Below are positions 9,754 through 62,741 of a DNA stretch of 64,000 nt, in pieces. Positions within the stretch are counted from its first letter, which is position 1. Each line of letters opens with the position of its first letter. The stretch spans positions 498,422 to 562,421 of the forward strand of contig JAHFBF010000001.1 of assembly GCA_023250195.1 (NCBI GenBank). Reading direction: 5' to 3'. The position numbers and the translations under genes are program-made. The notes under the pieces are model-generated. The model saw only the letters and a list, made by a program, of their open reading frames with translations, had not been told where the DNA came from and ran no database searches. The DNA comes from Candidatus Melainabacteria bacterium. Its GTDB lineage: Bacteria; Cyanobacteriota; Vampirovibrionia; 2-02-FULL-35-15.

Positions 9754-10479
9754 CTAACCCGTTATTTCAGTTTGTTTTTTAATAATTTCCAGGATTCCAT
9801 TATAAGCAAGCTCAACCATTTGATTAACGACACTTTGGCTAAAGGGCTTCCCTTCAGCAGTCATCTGAAGCTCAATAATCTGTCCTGATTTATTCATAAC
9901 TACATTACAGTCAACCTCTGCTTTTGAATCTTCATTATATGAAAGATCAAGTAAAAGCTCACCATTTACAATACCAACACTAACTGCACTAACCGGTTCT
10001 ATAAGAGGGATTTTTGTAATGAGTTTTTTCTCTTTCAATTTAGAAAGTGCTTTATAAACAGCTACAAATCCTCCACATATACTTGCAACTCTTGTAGAAG
10101 CATCTGCATTTATTACATCTGCATCAATAGAAATTGTTCTTGGTCCAAGTTCGTTTAAATTAAATGCAGCCCTCAGACTTCTTCCAATAAGTCTTTGAAT
10201 CTCACTTGTTCTTCCTGAAGGTTTCCCTTTTGTAACTTCTCTCTGGTTGCGTGGTCTTGTAGAACCCGGTAATAATGAGTATTCTGCAGTAAGCCAGCCT
10301 TTGCCTGTCCCTTCCAGAAAATGAGGCACCTTTTCCTCAATCATTGCAGTAACCAGAACTTTTGTCTGACCAAGTTCAACTAAAACTGACCCATCTGCAT
10401 TTGGTGTAAAATCCGGCTTAAAAATCAGCGGTCTCAGTTCATTATTTTTTCTATTATCTGTCCTTGACATATCAAACAT
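9754..10479 (-). CDS. rph: Ribonuclease PH
   Basis: RTDNRKNNELRP...ADGSVLVELGQTKVL...GRTSEIQRLIGRSLR...DCNVVM are typical RNase PH motifs. 241 aa. Confidence 0.95.
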   Translation of the reverse strand: MFDMSRTDNRKNNELRPLIFKPDFTPNADGSVLVELGQTKVLVTAMIEEKVPHFLEGTGKGWLTAEYSLLPGSTRPRNQREVTKGKPSGRTSEIQRLIGRSLRAAFNLNELGPRTISIDADVINADASTRVASICGGFVAVYKALSKLKEKKLITKIPLIEPVSAVSVGIVNGELLLDLSYNEDSKAEVDCNVVMNKSGQIIELQMTAEGKPFSQSVVNQMVELAYNGILEIIKKQTEITG

Positions 10480-10500: not shown

Positions 10501-10595
10501 GTCATTGCGAGCATCATAGGTGCGAAGCAGCCTCAAACTGTTTGCGTAAATTCGATCGAGATTGCCACGCCTTACTTTGTTCGGCTCGCAATGAC
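10501..10595. repeat. Palindromic MITE-like element (GTCATTGCGAG family), intergenic
   Basis: Perfect 12-bp termini GTCATTGCGAGC ... GCTCGCAATGAC, with inner GCGAAGCAGCCTC / GAGATTGCCACGC arms. Confidence 0.8.
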
Positions 10596-55333: not shown

Positions 55334-56212
55334 ATGAGAAAAATAAATATTGTTGTTGCTTTATTAATTATGTTAACTGTAAGTTTTAATCTTATAAGTC
55401 TGAGAGTCTTAAGCCAGACATCATCAGATTCAGTTTTAGATACTTATACAATTTCATTAACAAATAAAGATGGGAAAACAAGTCTTAATAGTCCTACAAC
55501 TGCATTAAACATAACAGTTTTACCAGGTGGACAAAACGTCGCAGGAATTGAAAGCAGTGTCTCGCTTAAAGCTACTGGTGTAATAACTGTACTAACAAAT
55601 GTAGATGCTACAAAAAATCTAATTACAGTTGTGTGGAGTGGTGGGATTTCAGATGGAAAAGCAACTGTAACAGGTATGCTTAAACAAGGCACTACAATTG
55701 CTCCTGATTTTACAGTCGTTAAAGTAGAAAAAGACGGTGGAGCTAATATTACAAATGATTTAAATATAACTGTAAATCTTAGTTCTTCTACAACAGGATC
55801 ATCATCTAGCAGCTCCGGCGGTACTACAACCTCAAGCAGCTCCGGCGGTACTACAGCCTCAAGCAGCTCCGGTGGATCTATAAATCCAAGTATTACCTTA
55901 ACTGTACCTGAAGAATTTGTAGTAAAGAAGACAGGTTTCAACACTTTTAAAGTCAAAGTAATCGGAACAAACTTTACTTCTACATCAAAATGCACAATTG
56001 AGGTTTCTGACGATACCCTACTAAGGGTAAGACCTTTAAAGTTTTTATTAAACAAAAGCAGAAATACAAAAACACTTTTAGCCAGAGTTCCGACTTTAGC
56101 AGCAAAAGATTTAATTAACAATGAGGCATCTGACATTGTTACTGTAGATGTATCATGTACAAATGATGCAAGTGATTCACAAGATATAATACTTTCATCT
56201 GGCAGTCCGTAG
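55334..56212 (+). CDS. Secreted protein with a Ser/Gly/Thr-rich repeat linker and a C-terminal domain shared with the 4027-5982 metalloprotease
   Basis: Signal peptide MRKINIVVALLIMLTVSFNLISL. SSSSSGGTTTSSSSGGTTASSSSGGS linker. The C-terminal ~100 aa align without gaps to the protease C-terminus. Chosen over the antisense ORF 55444-56136. Confidence 0.65.
   Translation: MRKINIVVALLIMLTVSFNLISLRVLSQTSSDSVLDTYTISLTNKDGKTSLNSPTTALNITVLPGGQNVAGIESSVSLKATGVITVLTNVDATKNLITVVWSGGISDGKATVTGMLKQGTTIAPDFTVVKVEKDGGANITNDLNITVNLSSSTTGSSSSSSGGTTTSSSSGGTTASSSSGGSINPSITLTVPEEFVVKKTGFNTFKVKVIGTNFTSTSKCTIEVSDDTLLRVRPLKFLLNKSRNTKTLLARVPTLAAKDLINNEASDIVTVDVSCTNDASDSQDIILSSGSP
55805..55876 (+). repeat. 27-nt in-frame tandem repeat (~2.7 copies) encoding SSSSGGTT(T/A)
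   Basis: TC(T/A)AGCAGCTCCGGCGGTACTACA(A/G)CC is repeated head to tail. Confidence 0.8.
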
Positions 56213-56216
56213 TTTA

Positions 56217-57917
56217 TTACTCTATCTGCTTTGCACCTAAAAGTTCGCTAACTGCATTTGTAAAATCATCGCTTGAACGTGCAGTATGAATATTAGCTTT
56301 TAGTTCAACCTTAGCCTCAGGTAATTTACTGGTTTCAACAAACAATTCGCGCTTTGTTTGCCTTGGAACCACTTTAAATCTGATTAATTTTGGATCAAGC
56401 CCAGAAGCTATGTTCACAGCTTTTAAAATCATTTCTTTTTTCTTGGCATCCTGATCTAATCTTGGTAAGAACATATCTTTTGATAACCCTACTTCAACAA
56501 TTTCTTTTGTTAATTGCAGTAAATAACTTTCAGACTGGGCAAGTAGAGTTTTTGTAGGATTGCTTTCAATAAGACCAACTATTCTTTGCCATAATATATC
56601 TAAATCTGAGTTGTCATTGCGAGGAGGCTCTGAAAGAGCCGACGAAACAATCTCCTTACTCTCGTGTAAAGATTGTGAGATTGCTTCGTCGCTCACCGCC
56701 ACGCCTTCGGCTCGCGGCTTCGGCTCCTCGCAATGACGTGCAGCCTTAGGTTGCTCTTTTATATTTTCTCCAACTCTTCCTGTCTCAAGTTTTTCAATTC
56801 TTATCTTAAGTTCAGAAACAGATACTAAAAAATCTTCATCAAGCATACTCATAATATCAGCCATAAACTGCAACTCCTGACTAAGAGCAAAACGTAATTT
56901 AGACTGTGTATCATGAAGTCTGTCTATAATTTTAAGTATATGTTCCTGACTAACTTTATCCAATATATTTAAATCACCTGACAATTCAAGTTTAAGTTTG
57001 TTTTTATAGCCAGGATCAATTTTTGCTTTTGCAAGATCAATTATCAATTCGAGCAGATCCTTGAACAATTCACTTATATCCTTCCCGCTCTTTATCAGCT
57101 CTTCCGCTAAATCAATAGATTCCTTTCTGTTAAAACTTAACACCGATTCAATTAGTTTAAATAAGCTTGTTCTATGTACAATTCCAAACAATTCAAAGAC
57201 TTCACTTGAAGAAATTGGTTTGTTTTCTACTTGTAGAACACTAATTTGATCCAGAAGAGAGACTGCATCCCGTAAACAGCCATTTGATCTTTTTGCAATA
57301 AAACTAATTACAGTTTCATCAATATTTATTTTTTCTTTATTTGTAATTTCCTTCACTCTTTTTTCAAGTTTTTCCTGGGAAATCGGCTTAAAATCTAATT
57401 TCTGGCATCTGCTTATAATAGTTGGTATTATTTTATATTCCTCTGTAGTAGCCAGAATAAATATTACATTTTTCGGTGGTTCTTCCAGAGTTTTTAAAAG
57501 AGCATTAAATGCATGATCAGTCAGCATATGGACTTCATCAATTATATAAATCTTAAAGCGCGATCCATATGTGCCAAGATTAACTCTGTTAATTAAATCT
57601 TCAGCATCTTCTACTTTTCTGTGACTTGCTGCATCTATTTCTATAACATCCAGAGAATTGCCATTAGTTATAGACTGGCAGCTCACACATTGTCCACATG
57701 GTTCCACAGTAATCCCTGATTCACAATTTAAAGACTTTGCAAGTATTCTTGCAGTAGAAGTTTTTCCGGTACCACGCGGACCACAAAAAAGATAAGCATG
57801 AACAATTTTATTATAAGCAATTGCATTTGAAAGCGTTCTAGTAACTACATCCTGACCTACAAGCTCAGAGAGTTTTTGAGGACGATATTTTAAGTATAGT
57901 GGCTGGTATTGTTTCAT
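56217..57917 (-). CDS. dnaX: DNA polymerase III subunit gamma/tau
   Basis: YRPQKLSELVGQ, Walker A GPRGTGKTS, zinc module CESGITVEPCGQCVSC, DEVHML, SRCQ. ATG at 57917 (MKQYQPLYLKYRPQ) is preferred over the GTG at 57935. Confidence 0.95.
   Translation of the reverse strand: MKQYQPLYLKYRPQKLSELVGQDVVTRTLSNAIAYNKIVHAYLFCGPRGTGKTSTARILAKSLNCESGITVEPCGQCVSCQSITNGNSLDVIEIDAASHRKVEDAEDLINRVNLGTYGSRFKIYIIDEVHMLTDHAFNALLKTLEEPPKNVIFILATTEEYKIIPTIISRCQKLDFKPISQEKLEKRVKEITNKEKINIDETVISFIAKRSNGCLRDAVSLLDQISVLQVENKPISSSEVFELFGIVHRTSLFKLIESVLSFNRKESIDLAEELIKSGKDISELFKDLLELIIDLAKAKIDPGYKNKLKLELSGDLNILDKVSQEHILKIIDRLHDTQSKLRFALSQELQFMADIMSMLDEDFLVSVSELKIRIEKLETGRVGENIKEQPKAARHCEEPKPRAEGVAVSDEAISQSLHESKEIVSSALSEPPRNDNSDLDILWQRIVGLIESNPTKTLLAQSESYLLQLTKEIVEVGLSKDMFLPRLDQDAKKKEMILKAVNIASGLDPKLIRFKVVPRQTKRELFVETSKLPEAKVELKANIHTARSSDDFTNAVSELLGAKQIE
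56613..56737. repeat. Palindromic MITE-like element (GTCATTGCGAGG family) inside the dnaX coding frame
   Basis: GTCATTGCGAGGAGGC...CGACGAAACAATCTC // GAGATTGCTTCGTCG...GGCTCCTCGCAATGAC. It is translated as RHCEEPKPRAEGVAVSDEAISQSLHESKEIVSSALSEPPRNDN. Confidence 0.8.
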
Positions 57918-57951
57918 GGTTGCCAATGTAGGCACGTAGCATGCTACGTAC

Positions 57952-59755: not shown

Positions 59756-59848
59756 GTCATTGCGAGGGCTTCAGCCCGAAGCAATCTCCCTAACTTATTC
59801 ACGTTTGTGAGATTGTTTCGTCGGGACTTTGTCCCTCCTTGCAATGAC
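59756..59848. repeat. Palindromic MITE-like element (GTCATTGCGAGG family), intergenic between valS and dxr
   Basis: GTCATTGCGAGGGCTTCAGCCCGAAGCAATCTC ... GAGATTGTTTCGTCGGGACTTTGTCCCTCCTTGCAATGAC. It ends 9 nt upstream of the dxr start codon. Confidence 0.8.
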
Positions 59849-59885: not shown

Positions 59886-62741
59886 TTACTTTAATAATTC
59901 TATCTGCTCATCGATAGTTTTTATCTGATTCTCTAATTCATTAACTCTTGTCTTAACTTCATCTATTTTATCCTGAGCAGCGTTATTAATAAAGTTTGCA
60001 TTGTTAAGCTTTGTTTTTTGATTTTTCATTTCTTTTTCAAAGGAATCTTTCTTTTTATTTAAACTGCTTAACATATTGTCAAGATTATCATCCTTTGATA
60101 GCACAATTAACCCTCGCGTACCTTTAACTTTAGAATTTCCATTACTCACATTTATATCAGGATTTAATACCTCAAGTGGTGTCTCTGGAACCCAAAAAAT
60201 TAATGACGGTTTTGTAAGTTCTAATTTTTCTAAAACAACAACTTTACTTTTTGTTTGGCTCTCAATATAAATTTTTAGTGCCTCAATGACTCCCTTTGCA
60301 AGTCTACTTCCAGGCAGTAAGTTAACTGTTATTTCATTTGACCAAGGCAGATTAGCTTCTTGTCTTTTATTTCTAATCACTGTATTGATCTCTTTAATAA
60401 ATGAATAAGATTGTGCATAACTTGTAAATTCCCCTACAGACAAGTTACTGCTGTTTGGGTATTTTGCTTGTGATATAAACTTAATTTTATCCAATGCTGA
60501 TTTAGGTAATCGTTGCCATATTTCTTCAGTTATAAAAGGCATTATAGGCTGAAAAGCTCTGATTAATCCTTCGAGAACATAAAACAATATTGCCTGAGTA
60601 TTTTCTTTTATTTCAGGAATATTTAACTGTTCTTTTGCATCTTCCACATACCCATCACAAAACTGAAACCAGATAAATCTAAATAATCTCTGCGTTACAA
60701 ATGAATAATTGTGATTCTTGAAATATTCATTAATATTTGACAACATCCAGCAATATTCATGAAGTATCCATTTGTCTGGAATTGTAAGTTTGTTTTGATC
60801 AAGTCTTTCGAGAATTTGTTCAAAGTCAAGATTTGCTTCAAATGTTTTATTCTCTAATTTTTCTATTACAAATCTGTTTACATTCCAGATTTTATTTGCA
60901 AATCTTTTTCCCTTTTCAAGAATATCAGATTCCCACTTCCCATCTTTATCTTTTCTCCCCGGGAAACGCACATCCTGATTACCTGTTACACCTACGCTAA
61001 AATACCAGAATCTATTTGCATCTGCTCCATATTTTTCTATCATCTCAAGCGGATCAATTGCATTTCCTTTTGATTTTGACATTCGCTTTCCATCAGGAGT
61101 TTGAATAACAGGATGAATTAAAACTTCTTTAAATGGAACATCCTTTTTAAATTCTAAGCTCATAAAAACCATTCGTGAAACCCAAAGATTTATTATTTCT
61201 CTAGCTGTTGCTAAAACGGTTGTTGGATAAAAATCTTTTACAAGGTTAGCATCATCTCTACATTCTAAGGTTGCAAATGGCCAAAGAGCTGAACTAAACC
61301 ATGTATCTAGGACATCAGGGTCTTGAACTAACTCTGGAGAACTGCATTTATCACATTTTGCAGGAATAGTTTCTTTAATAGGTCCATAATACTCTCTTCT
61401 TTCGAGTTGAACTACACCATGAGAATTACACTTTTTACAATGCCAAGCTGGGATTTGATGCCCCCACCAGAGTTGCCTGCTTATACACCAGTCTTTGATA
61501 TTTCTTAGCCAATTTTTATAATGCTCAGCATATCTATCTGGAATAAATTTTACGCGTCCGTCTTCAACTGCCTCAATTGCAGATATTGAAAGTGAATGCT
61601 TTTTATCATTCATTTTTACATACCACTGCTCTGAAAGATATGGCTCTATGACCGTTCCACAGCGATCGTGTTTACTACATGCCTGATCATATTCAATCAC
61701 TTGTTTTAATAAGCCAAGCTCTTCAAGTTTTTGAACAGTAAGTTCTCTTGCTTTAAAGCGATCAAGATCTTGAATATCTGACGGTATTCCAATATTTTCT
61801 TTATCTATAATCTTTCCATTTGGCGACATGATTTCAGGATATGTACCTAATTCTTTATGTCTTTCAAAGATTTCATAATCCACCAGATCATGTGCTGGTG
61901 TAACCTTTAGACAGCCTGTTCCAAAATCAAGCTCTATTGCTTCATCACCAATAATTGGGATTTGCTTATTGATGAAAGGTAGAAAAACTTTTGTACCAAT
62001 TAATTTTTTATATCTGCCGTCATTTGGATTTACTGCCACTGCAATATCTCCAAACATTGTCTCAGGACGTGTTGTAGCTACTGTAAGGCCACCTTTTGAA
62101 AAATCTTTTAAGTCAAAGGGATATAAGATGTGAAAAAGCTTTCCTTTAATTTGCTCGGTTTCAACTTCCAGATCGCTGATGCTAGTTAAACACTTTGGAC
62201 ACCAGTTAACAATTCTTTTTCCACGATAGATTAAATCTTTTTTATAAAGATCTATAAAACCTTTTTTAACTGCAAATGAATAGTTATCCTCCATTGTAAA
62301 AACAAGATGATCATAATCAAGCATGCAACCAAGTTTTTTCATCTGGTTGATAATTTCATTTCCATGTTTTTCTTTCCAAACCCAGACACGCTTTAAAAAT
62401 TCTTCTCTTCCTAAATCTTCTTTTCTTTTCTTCTCATTTTTTGAAATCTCTCTTTCCACCAAAACTTGAGTAGCAATTCCAGCATGGTCTGTACCACCCT
62501 GCCAGAGAACATTTTTACCGTTCATTTTGTTATATCTGATTAAAACATCCTGAATAGTATCTCCAAATGCATGCCCCATATGAAGACTGCCCGTTACATT
62601 CGGTGGAGGAAGTGCAATTGAAAAGTTATTGTCCTTGTTAATAGGATCAGGTCTTGATGCAAAAAGCTTTTCATCCAGCCATATTTTCAGCCACTTTTCT
62701 TCAACTTCTTTTGGATTATATGTTTTAGACAATTCTGTCAT
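59886..62741 (-). CDS. valS: Valyl-tRNA synthetase
   Basis: PPPNVTGSLHMGHAF (HIGH), KMSKSKGN (KMSKS), and a C-terminal coiled coil. 951 aa. Confidence 0.97.
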   Translation of the reverse strand: MTELSKTYNPKEVEEKWLKIWLDEKLFASRPDPINKDNNFSIALPPPNVTGSLHMGHAFGDTIQDVLIRYNKMNGKNVLWQGGTDHAGIATQVLVEREISKNEKKRKEDLGREEFLKRVWVWKEKHGNEIINQMKKLGCMLDYDHLVFTMEDNYSFAVKKGFIDLYKKDLIYRGKRIVNWCPKCLTSISDLEVETEQIKGKLFHILYPFDLKDFSKGGLTVATTRPETMFGDIAVAVNPNDGRYKKLIGTKVFLPFINKQIPIIGDEAIELDFGTGCLKVTPAHDLVDYEIFERHKELGTYPEIMSPNGKIIDKENIGIPSDIQDLDRFKARELTVQKLEELGLLKQVIEYDQACSKHDRCGTVIEPYLSEQWYVKMNDKKHSLSISAIEAVEDGRVKFIPDRYAEHYKNWLRNIKDWCISRQLWWGHQIPAWHCKKCNSHGVVQLERREYYGPIKETIPAKCDKCSSPELVQDPDVLDTWFSSALWPFATLECRDDANLVKDFYPTTVLATAREIINLWVSRMVFMSLEFKKDVPFKEVLIHPVIQTPDGKRMSKSKGNAIDPLEMIEKYGADANRFWYFSVGVTGNQDVRFPGRKDKDGKWESDILEKGKRFANKIWNVNRFVIEKLENKTFEANLDFEQILERLDQNKLTIPDKWILHEYCWMLSNINEYFKNHNYSFVTQRLFRFIWFQFCDGYVEDAKEQLNIPEIKENTQAILFYVLEGLIRAFQPIMPFITEEIWQRLPKSALDKIKFISQAKYPNSSNLSVGEFTSYAQSYSFIKEINTVIRNKRQEANLPWSNEITVNLLPGSRLAKGVIEALKIYIESQTKSKVVVLEKLELTKPSLIFWVPETPLEVLNPDINVSNGNSKVKGTRGLIVLSKDDNLDNMLSSLNKKKDSFEKEMKNQKTKLNNANFINNAAQDKIDEVKTRVNELENQIKTIDEQIELLK

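Follow-up and report, generated by a model that had tools for sequence, protein, structure and literature searches.

A CGTC-tagged, REP-like palindromic element read in frame within the dnaX linker of a Candidatus Melainabacteria genome

In this study we analysed a 64-kb stretch of a Candidatus Melainabacteria genome (hereafter the window) and, in particular, a 125-bp palindromic element located within its dnaX gene, which encodes a tau-like subunit of DNA polymerase III. We consider it likely, with a probability of a little over three in four, that this element is a non-autonomous repeat of the CGTC-tagged REP (repetitive extragenic palindrome) type, which inserted anciently into the sequence coding for a linker of DnaX and has been tolerated there in frame as a passenger. 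The element is a real example of a known phenomenon, i.e. the toleration of repeats of the REP or RPE (Rickettsia palindromic element) type in frame at linkers or loops, and adds a lineage and a host gene to those in which it is known. Three aspects go further than what has been described: how old the insertion is, the conservation of its boxes irrespective of frame while its hairpins are replaced wholesale, and the occurrence of this module in tailed phages.

The element occupies positions 56613-56737 and has a GC content of 56%, as compared with 33% for the rest of dnaX. A first-pass annotation had placed it inside an open reading frame (ORF) of 572 aa, in which it codes for residues ~400-441 and is read in frame as AARHCEEPKPRAEGVAVSDEAISQSLHESKEIVSSALSEPPRNDNSD; the coordinates, sequence and translation all agree with our results. 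The same annotation described near-perfect nested inverted repeats, and the arms are indeed well matched: the outer ones (56613-56626 and 56724-56737; GTCATTGCGAGGAG and CTCCTCGCAATGAC) are complementary at 14/14 positions (15/16 over the 16-mers originally delimited), and the inner ones (56640-56654 and 56677-56691; CGACGAAACAATCTC and GAGATTGCTTCGTCG) at 14/15. However, the stretches separating the outer from the inner arms (13 nt and 32 nt) do not resemble each other, and the structure is not a plain nested palindrome, but an inverted dimer of two REP-like modules with outward tags, arranged around a 22-nt spacer. Module 1 (56613-56654, plus strand) comprises box A (GTCATTGCGAGGAG, 56613-56626), a hairpin (GCTCTGAAAGAGC, 56627-56639) identical to that of the orthologous copy in relative L202, and box B (CGACGAAACAATCTC, 56640-56654). 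Module 2 (56677-56737) lies on the minus strand. Each of the two reads GTCATTGCGAGGAG, then a variable segment (in module 2 a GC-rich one of 32 nt, 56692-56723), then CGACGAAGCAATCTC. The central spacer (56655-56676) is locus-specific and homologous to that of orthologous dnaX copies. The general formula of the module is (C/T)GTC-ATTGCGAGG-(variable hairpin)-CGACGAAGCAAT-CYN, i.e. a unit of ~30-60 nt with a (C/T)GTC tag, a short ATTGC/GCAAT stem, purine-rich internal boxes (GAGGAG and CGACGAA), a hairpin free in both sequence and length, and a C-rich tail.

These sequences are clearly over-represented in the window. The outer 14-mer, with up to three mismatches allowed, occurs nine times against 2.0 expected (a count matched by 0/100 shuffles), and the inner 15-mer six times against 0.66 expected. 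For the 141-nt region containing the element, the predicted folding energy is -71.9 kcal/mol (z = -7.2) in the RNA form and -36.9 kcal/mol (z = -6.7) in the DNA form. Searches of reference collections did not assign the element to a described family. At the gathering score Rfam 15 gave no match in the window, and at E <= 10 the element itself produced only chance microRNA-like matches (E >= 0.2). No match to Pfam or NCBIfam was obtained with five element-encoded peptides at E <= 10, and a phmmer search of 1.84 billion representative proteins with a 47-aa peptide, which is too short and variable for such a search to serve as a usable census, yielded one weak match (E = 1.4e-4). A full-text literature search with the box sequences as strings returned unrelated primers only.

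The host gene, dnaX (56217-57935, minus strand), codes for 572 aa from a GTG codon or for 566 aa from the ATG at 57917; an exact database look-up found no record of the longer product, while the 566-aa form is present. In databases, closely similar proteins go under the name DNA polymerase III subunit gamma/tau (Candidatus Melainabacteria). The part recognised by Pfam, comprising DNA_pol3_delta2, AAA, the ATPase lid and domain III, extends to about residue 317, and similarity to the Escherichia coli tau/gamma chains in the PDB is limited to residues 9-309. An AlphaFold2 model built from 45 orthologues, and numbered after the 566-aa form, places the last collar helix at residues 367-378, followed by a coil at 382-435 with a predicted local distance difference test score (pLDDT) of 28-41, and by a confident C-terminal domain at 436-520 (pLDDT ~90). 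The element corresponds to residues 394-435, i.e. it falls wholly within the low-confidence coil and reaches the boundary of the C-terminal domain. In the alignment of the 45 orthologues this linker is hypervariable in both length and sequence. The 42 element-encoded amino acids are therefore predicted by the model to lie in a disordered linker joining the clamp-loader collar to the C-terminal domain, which agrees with the location after the ATPase and collar domains, in a variable linker, that had been proposed from the DNA alone, together with structure modelling as a check.

Comparison of dnaX across relatives indicates that the insertion is old. Several orthologues encode element-derived peptides at this location, and the DNA of nine orthologues was compared. 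Orthologous copies were found at the same site in seven of these relatives (L201, L202, L204, L206, L208, L210 and L211), whose DnaX proteins are 68-83% identical to that of the window. The right junction (GCAATGAC/AAT..GATTTAGAT) is common to all seven, as is the left one (CAC/GTCATTGCGAGG) wherever the left end survives. The non-palindromic spacer (ACAA..CTACACAAGGAAAGTAA) is homologous in L201, L202, L204 and the window, while L206 and L208 have the left hairpin GGATGAAATCC in common, decayed to different degrees. The element is nearly intact in the genome analysed here, and decayed or half gone in L204, L208, L210 and L211, in which dnaX is intact; in L209 (DnaX 69% identical) no trace of it was found at the dnaX site. 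Since junctions and spacer are shared among relatives, the simplest history is a single insertion in an ancestor, passed on vertically and in part decayed since, and the dnaX copy should not be seen as a recent, independent hit. Nor is this a segment conserved in relatives that lack the family elsewhere; the relatives carry other copies. In a more distant DnaX orthologue (P0025), the same linker contains TTCHPEQSEGS, the peptide of a sister module, of the ATCCT/AGGAT type, which is present in hisH of the window; this suggests, as far as peptide resemblance goes, a separate insertion into the same linker.

The boxes of the element have been conserved much better than the surrounding gene. At four-fold degenerate sites of dnaX the identity between the window and its relatives is 0.51-0.66, whereas in the same relatives the boxes reach 0.88-1.0 (binomial p 2e-8 to 3e-3). 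Translated, the left module gives RHCEE in the window, L201 and L204, and HVIAR in L206 and L208. Because the same boxes occur in two reading frames, what is conserved is not the peptide but the DNA. In contrast to the boxes, the hairpins between them differ completely between orthologous dnaX copies and recur in copies elsewhere; for example, L204 has CCCCCACGCTTTGCTCGGGG in its dnaX copy and L202 has it in its ileS copy. These features would be explained most economically if exchange among family copies, by module-level gene conversion or by re-transposition, kept the boxes alike. Such exchange would homogenise the boxes, swap the hairpins and let the spacer drift. Replacement of modules by newly arriving copies is indistinguishable from gene conversion.

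The window contains four loci of the family, two of them in frame (hisH and dnaX) and two intergenic, and the proposal that two of its genes carry in-frame copies of one palindromic family is thus borne out, with counts above chance. The hisH copy (139-221; hisH, a minus-strand gene, is cut by the left end of the window) is read as CHPEQSEGSQTVSHYEIASSGLCLPRND. It is a heterodimer: one arm has the form GTCATTGCGAGG..GACGAAGCAATC, while the other, GTCATCCTGAGC..CGAAGGATC, belongs to the sister subfamily, in which ATTGC/GCAAT is replaced by ATCCT/AGGAT, i.e. by compensatory changes preserving the module's own stem. The hisH loop bearing the element is ~27 aa longer than in solved HisH structures. 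A 13-bp inverted repeat at 219-250 (GACATTTTGTGGT and ACCACAAAATGTC) abuts this copy and has the GAC at its end in common with it. The reading frame continues through this repeat as well (TFCGTQTTK), which may represent a further, nested unit of the palindromic kind, the third at this site.

The first intergenic copy (10501-10595), located 22 nt upstream of the start of the ORF at 9754-10479 (minus strand), is another heterodimer, with a second arm of the CGTGGCAATC type. The second (59756-59848), in the gap that separates the ileS stop (59886) from the dxr start (59747), is orthologous to copies at 8076-8173 of L202 and 3171-3262 of L206, and its hairpin differs from theirs by compensatory changes (GGGAC/GTCCC vs GAGTC/GACTC). 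The ileS gene itself (59886-62741, minus strand) has an empty site in the window, in L208 and in L209. This site is filled in L202 (6653-6768) and L206 (1745-1830), where ileS carries, directly behind a conserved LGWP motif, an in-frame dimer of 39 and 29 aa, respectively (VIAS...LLAMT). What has been inserted is GTC...GAC with one additional base (117 and 87 nt), and no target duplication accompanies it; the 125-bp length of the dnaX element is not divisible by three, but that of the inserted unit, as defined at the empty and filled ileS sites, is. In the syntenic regions of relatives there are 7-8 loci per 14-22 kb (one per 2-3 kb), as compared with four per 64 kb in the window. The family has either expanded in those regions or been largely purged from the genome analysed here. 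Two further observations concern the surroundings of dnaX. In L202, half an element lies between pth and dnaX (9968-10003), and the dnaX ATG (10001) is formed by the last three bases of box GGCGAAGCAATG. In the window, dnaX is adjoined by an ORF (55334-56212, plus strand) coding for 292 aa, with a hydrophobic segment at the N-terminus and repeats rich in Ser, Gly and Thr (SSSSSSGGTTTSSSSGGTTASSSSGG), while the opposite strand of the same DNA contains an ORF of 230 aa.

The distribution of the copies points to survival at tolerant sites. The window, L202 and L206 together provide 99 kb of DNA, 92% of it coding, in which only 6/19 element loci lie in coding sequence and 13/19 are intergenic (p ~8e-11 against random placement); orthologous copies are non-independent, and by unique sites about 3/12 are in coding sequence. 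This depletion fits survival only where an insert is tolerated, and all three host sites, i.e. the dnaX linker, the hisH loop and the ileS loop, are insert-tolerant. The suggestion that the family survives preferentially in permissive loops is therefore well supported, the census envisaged earlier for the whole genome having covered these 99 kb. Selection for stop-free reading frames, the other possibility raised in the first-pass annotation, finds weak support at best. By sequence alone 4/6 frames are open through the boxes, the other two meeting TGA in GCAATGAC. Among 80 non-redundant dimers from many phyla, there are on average 2.89 open frames; when the variable parts are mononucleotide-shuffled, the figure is 2.33 +/- 0.10. 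This modest excess is one that so crude a null could also yield.

The family is by no means confined to the Melainabacteria-like clade. The exact pattern CATTGCGAGG-N(4-34)-CGAAGCAATC matched at least 120 stretches in species-representative genomes, where ~30 would be expected by chance in 596 Gb, and at least 120 loci in viral contigs. Among the matches listed are Alphaproteobacteria such as Bradyrhizobium, Bacteroidota, Patescibacteria, Chloroflexota, Planctomycetota, Omnitrophota, Zixibacteria, Helicobacter rodentium and others. In these matches the inverted partner is situated downstream in 89/135 modules and upstream in 8/135. The middles of the modules are hairpins of free sequence (331 different middles with 107 different stems), in which GAA and GCA are the commonest loops, with many cases of GGA and GTA too; 50% of the middles of 12 nt or more contain a perfect stem of 4 bp or longer, as compared with 17% in shuffles. 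The base before GTC is C in 56/85 dimers and T in 21/85, and the tail after GCAAT is CCA in 43/85, while the Melainabacteria-like copies have CTC. In none of the 85 dimers do the two arms have complementary middles. The bases just outside GT...AC in these dimers (L082-L199) are complementary more often than by chance, with at least one pair in 56/85 and at least two in 25/85; either the palindrome is extended by locus-specific bases or insertion prefers palindromic targets.

Single modules are also common, and they are the unit found in phage contigs. In two IMG/VR contigs (L216:3339-12745 and L265:2323-10278), tailed-phage structural modules (portal, major head, terminase and tail fibre genes by PHROGs) contain single family modules in nearly every short intergenic gap, in a single orientation within each contig; in L216, AGRGMCTAAAGAAG and then the next start codon come after every module. 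Over all loci, the orientation of modules with respect to transcription showed no overall bias (21 vs 19 viral and 6 vs 6 bacterial loci). An all-against-all BLASTP comparison of 3,470 ORFs from 120 loci, made in search of a gene travelling with the element, gave only common housekeeping clusters. Moreover, tblastn with E. coli RayT as a single query detected nothing at E < 1 in the window and ~330 loci, a weak test on limited DNA.

We propose that a copy entered dnaX in an ancestor of the Melainabacteria-like clade and landed in the unstructured linker between the collar and the C-terminal domain. The length of the insert preserved the frame and four of the six box frames are free of stops, so that dnaX stayed intact. 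The element has since been read as ~42 extra linker residues and inherited vertically, decaying in some relatives and remaining near-intact here. As its frame differs between relatives, a requirement for the encoded peptide does not fit, and we infer that the copy is most likely a tolerated passenger without a role in DnaX function.

Several points weigh against this interpretation. The strong conservation of the boxes inside a gene could mean that the structure functions there, and gene conversion between copies is something that we infer, no event having been observed. The element peptide of DnaX is predicted from the ORF alone. Nearest-neighbour energy models attribute no unusual stability to single modules (z -0.8 to +1.7), so that the argument for folding at the level of the module is one of covariation only (ATCCT/AGGAT vs ATTGC/GCAAT, plus the 107 distinct hairpin stems). 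The locus census is small (~100 kb from three related genomes) with partly orthologous loci, and the exact pattern biases the cross-phylum sample, whose figures hold among the matches listed. Finally, the CGTC-tagged families have an 8-9-bp stem and a 4-5-nt loop, while the module described here has a 5-bp stem, boxes that do not form Watson-Crick pairs (GAGGAG/CGACGAA) and, nested within, a hairpin 4-45 nt long.

Among the other explanations, it is improbable that the dnaX copies of the relatives represent independent hot-spot insertions, or that fresh transposition repeatedly replaced a resident copy, in place of a single ancestral insertion. Such a history would account for hairpins that are unrelated between orthologues and recur at other loci, for the traces of other subfamilies in other DnaX linkers (e.g. 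CHPEQSEGS, of the ATCCT type, in P0025) and for the patchy ileS copy, present in L202 and L206 and missing in the window and L208. However, the junctions are identical on both sides, the spacer is homologous in four genomes, and L206 and L208 share one hairpin at different decay stages; with spacer and junctions shared, independent hits are less parsimonious than one old insertion. It is very improbable that the element is an ordinary MITE (a miniature transposable element with inverted repeats), i.e. a deletion derivative of an insertion sequence with a DDE transposase, moved in trans via its terminal inverted repeats. A size of 80-125 bp, terminal inverted repeats and dispersal in multiple copies would all suit a MITE, but no target-site duplication was found at the filled and empty ileS sites or at the window copies, and no recurrent neighbouring gene at the 120 loci. 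In addition, single modules are common and form the unit of the phage contigs, and what is conserved is an internally structured module with tag and tail, as in REPs. As for a native linker sequence palindromic by chance, or an assembly artefact, the variability of tau linkers is the one thing in its favour, and we regard it as refuted: both the counts and the fold lie far beyond shuffled controls, and the same sequence occurs in independent assemblies and in other genes.

A functional role of the hairpin requires separate consideration. In E. coli dnaX a stem-loop after A AAA AAG stimulates frameshifting, and gamma is made after domain III. The hairpin in the dnaX mRNA described here is likewise stable (-71.9 kcal/mol) and situated just past the collar domain, at the corresponding site, and could be envisaged as a cis-element, conserved for this reason, that pauses or shifts ribosomes and thereby sets the ratio of tau to a short gamma-like product. 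The conservation of the boxes well above neutral in orthologues and the termination of both alternative frames 3-34 codons from the start of the element would be compatible with such a role, as would an excess of intragenic REPs among genes for replication and repair, which PMC3733652 notes without explanation. On the other hand, five orthologues lack an X_XXY_YYZ slippery heptamer at the required 5-9 nt, as well as an A/T run, and upstream of the element the orthologues show no conservation whatsoever, so that neither a slippery site nor a conserved upstream signal accompanies what is a dispersed repeat. The element is decayed or half gone in four relatives with intact dnaX and absent in L209, and the same element occurs in ileS, hisH and intergenic DNA. 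We therefore consider a regulatory role in dnaX, such as tau/gamma frameshifting, unlikely, and conservation for the sake of such a role to be quite improbable.

A more tentative possibility, which we would not favour but which deserves some weight, is that the boxes are recognition sites of a very widespread machinery acting on single-stranded DNA or RNA, host-encoded or phage-borne, that moves single modules, and also replaces them in situ, as "hairpin cassettes". If true, this would explain why the same 12-15-nt boxes are found from Melainabacteria to Alphaproteobacteria, Patescibacteria and tailed phages, why boxes are kept and hairpins swapped in orthologous copies, and why some phage operons have one module per intergenic gap; the dnaX and ileS copies would then be natural records of cassette exchange inside essential genes.

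The preferred interpretation, an old REP-type passenger, has several implications. In-frame selfish palindromes, hitherto a hallmark of Rickettsia and a few Proteobacteria, would be extended to a non-photosynthetic sister lineage of cyanobacteria and to a clamp-loader subunit, and the orthologous series indicates that such inserts may persist for a long time, conserved as DNA and not as peptide. In genome annotation, the 42 DnaX residues, and similar segments of HisH and IleS, should be treated as repeat-derived rather than as domain features. Moreover, hairpin replacement and phage-borne copies provide handles for finding the enzyme that mobilises the family.

The element may be compared with several groups of small repeats. 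The Rickettsia palindromic elements, reportedly described by Ogata et al. in 2000, are likewise palindromic repeats of ~100 bp that lie in frame in essential genes and are translated (as is predicted here from the reading frames), at tolerant surface or linker sites shared by orthologues and decaying over time; the copies in dnaX, hisH and ileS behave in the same way. The element peptides had no match in NCBIfam, which we take to hold RPE domain models, and RPE-1 has an unrelated sequence. The hosts also differ, being free-living or groundwater Melainabacteria-like organisms here and obligate intracellular Alphaproteobacteria in the case of RPE. The core differs as well: in PMC3733652, where R. 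conorii RPE-6 and RPE-4 are equated with CGTC-1 and CGTC-4, the corresponding peptides include VIPAKAGI and VIPWLDHGI.

Bacterial MITEs inserted in frame (enterobacterial RU/ERIC and Coxiella QMITEs; PMC2759123, PMC5896051, PMC10969869) are also small non-autonomous repeats that add peptide segments. They have terminal repeats derived from insertion sequences and target-site duplications, whereas neither was seen here: the filled and empty ileS sites showed no duplication, and the 120 loci no associated transposase. REPINs (Bertels and Rainey 2011; Nunvar 2010) resemble the element more closely, being inverted doublets of REP-like units with a long hairpin, long vertical persistence and no target duplication. 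However, REPINs are tagged with GTAG and tied to a single-copy RAYT (a Y1 HUH transposase) flanked by REPs, while the tag found here is CGTC or TGTC.

The closest counterparts are the CGTC-tagged REPs (Di Nocera, De Gregorio and Rocco 2013, BMC Genomics 14:522; PMC3733652). According to that paper, they carry the tag CGTC (with variants TGTC and CCTC), a stem whose first pairs are A-T and T-A, and a short unpaired 3' tail with the consensus CCA; they are mainly intergenic and mostly form inverted dimers with outward tags and a 20-100-nt spacer, heterodimers being common, and are described without associated transposase genes. The dnaX copy has the unpaired 5' tag (C/GTCATT on the coding strand and T/GTCATT at the other end), and its stem begins with the same pairs (ATTGC/GCAAT, or ATCCT/AGGAT in the sister arm of the family). 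The tail is CCA in 43/85 dimers, the copies are dispersed, mainly intergenic (13/19) and inverted with a clear preference (89 vs 8), with heterodimers among them, and no transposase lies beside them, as judged from the absence of a recurrent neighbour at 120 loci and, by a weak test, of a RayT match. With respect to the stem and loop given in the text description of the families CGTC-1 to CGTC-4, the module would be either a variant outside these four or a form not listed among them.

In-frame intragenic copies are also common ground. The same paper reports many of them, among others in dnaE, uvrA/B/C and ileS of Erythrobacter litoralis, and tRNA synthetase and replication genes thus harbour occasional copies in both cases. 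The Erythrobacter ileS insert is a CGTC-1 dimer at residues 467-488 of 965, a relative position similar to that of the ileS insert of L202 and L206. The peptides encoded by the two groups of repeats begin alike (VI..,.H.. or S.) and end alike (..ND or ..MT) because of the shared GTCATT...AATGAC ends, whereas those described here (VIAR/HCEE/SLRG ... PRND/LAMT) are outside that paper's list of intragenic REPs. It records CGTC repeats in five phyla and names no such family from Cyanobacteria, while the module described in this study occurs in a Melainabacteria-like clade, in many further phyla and in phage contigs.

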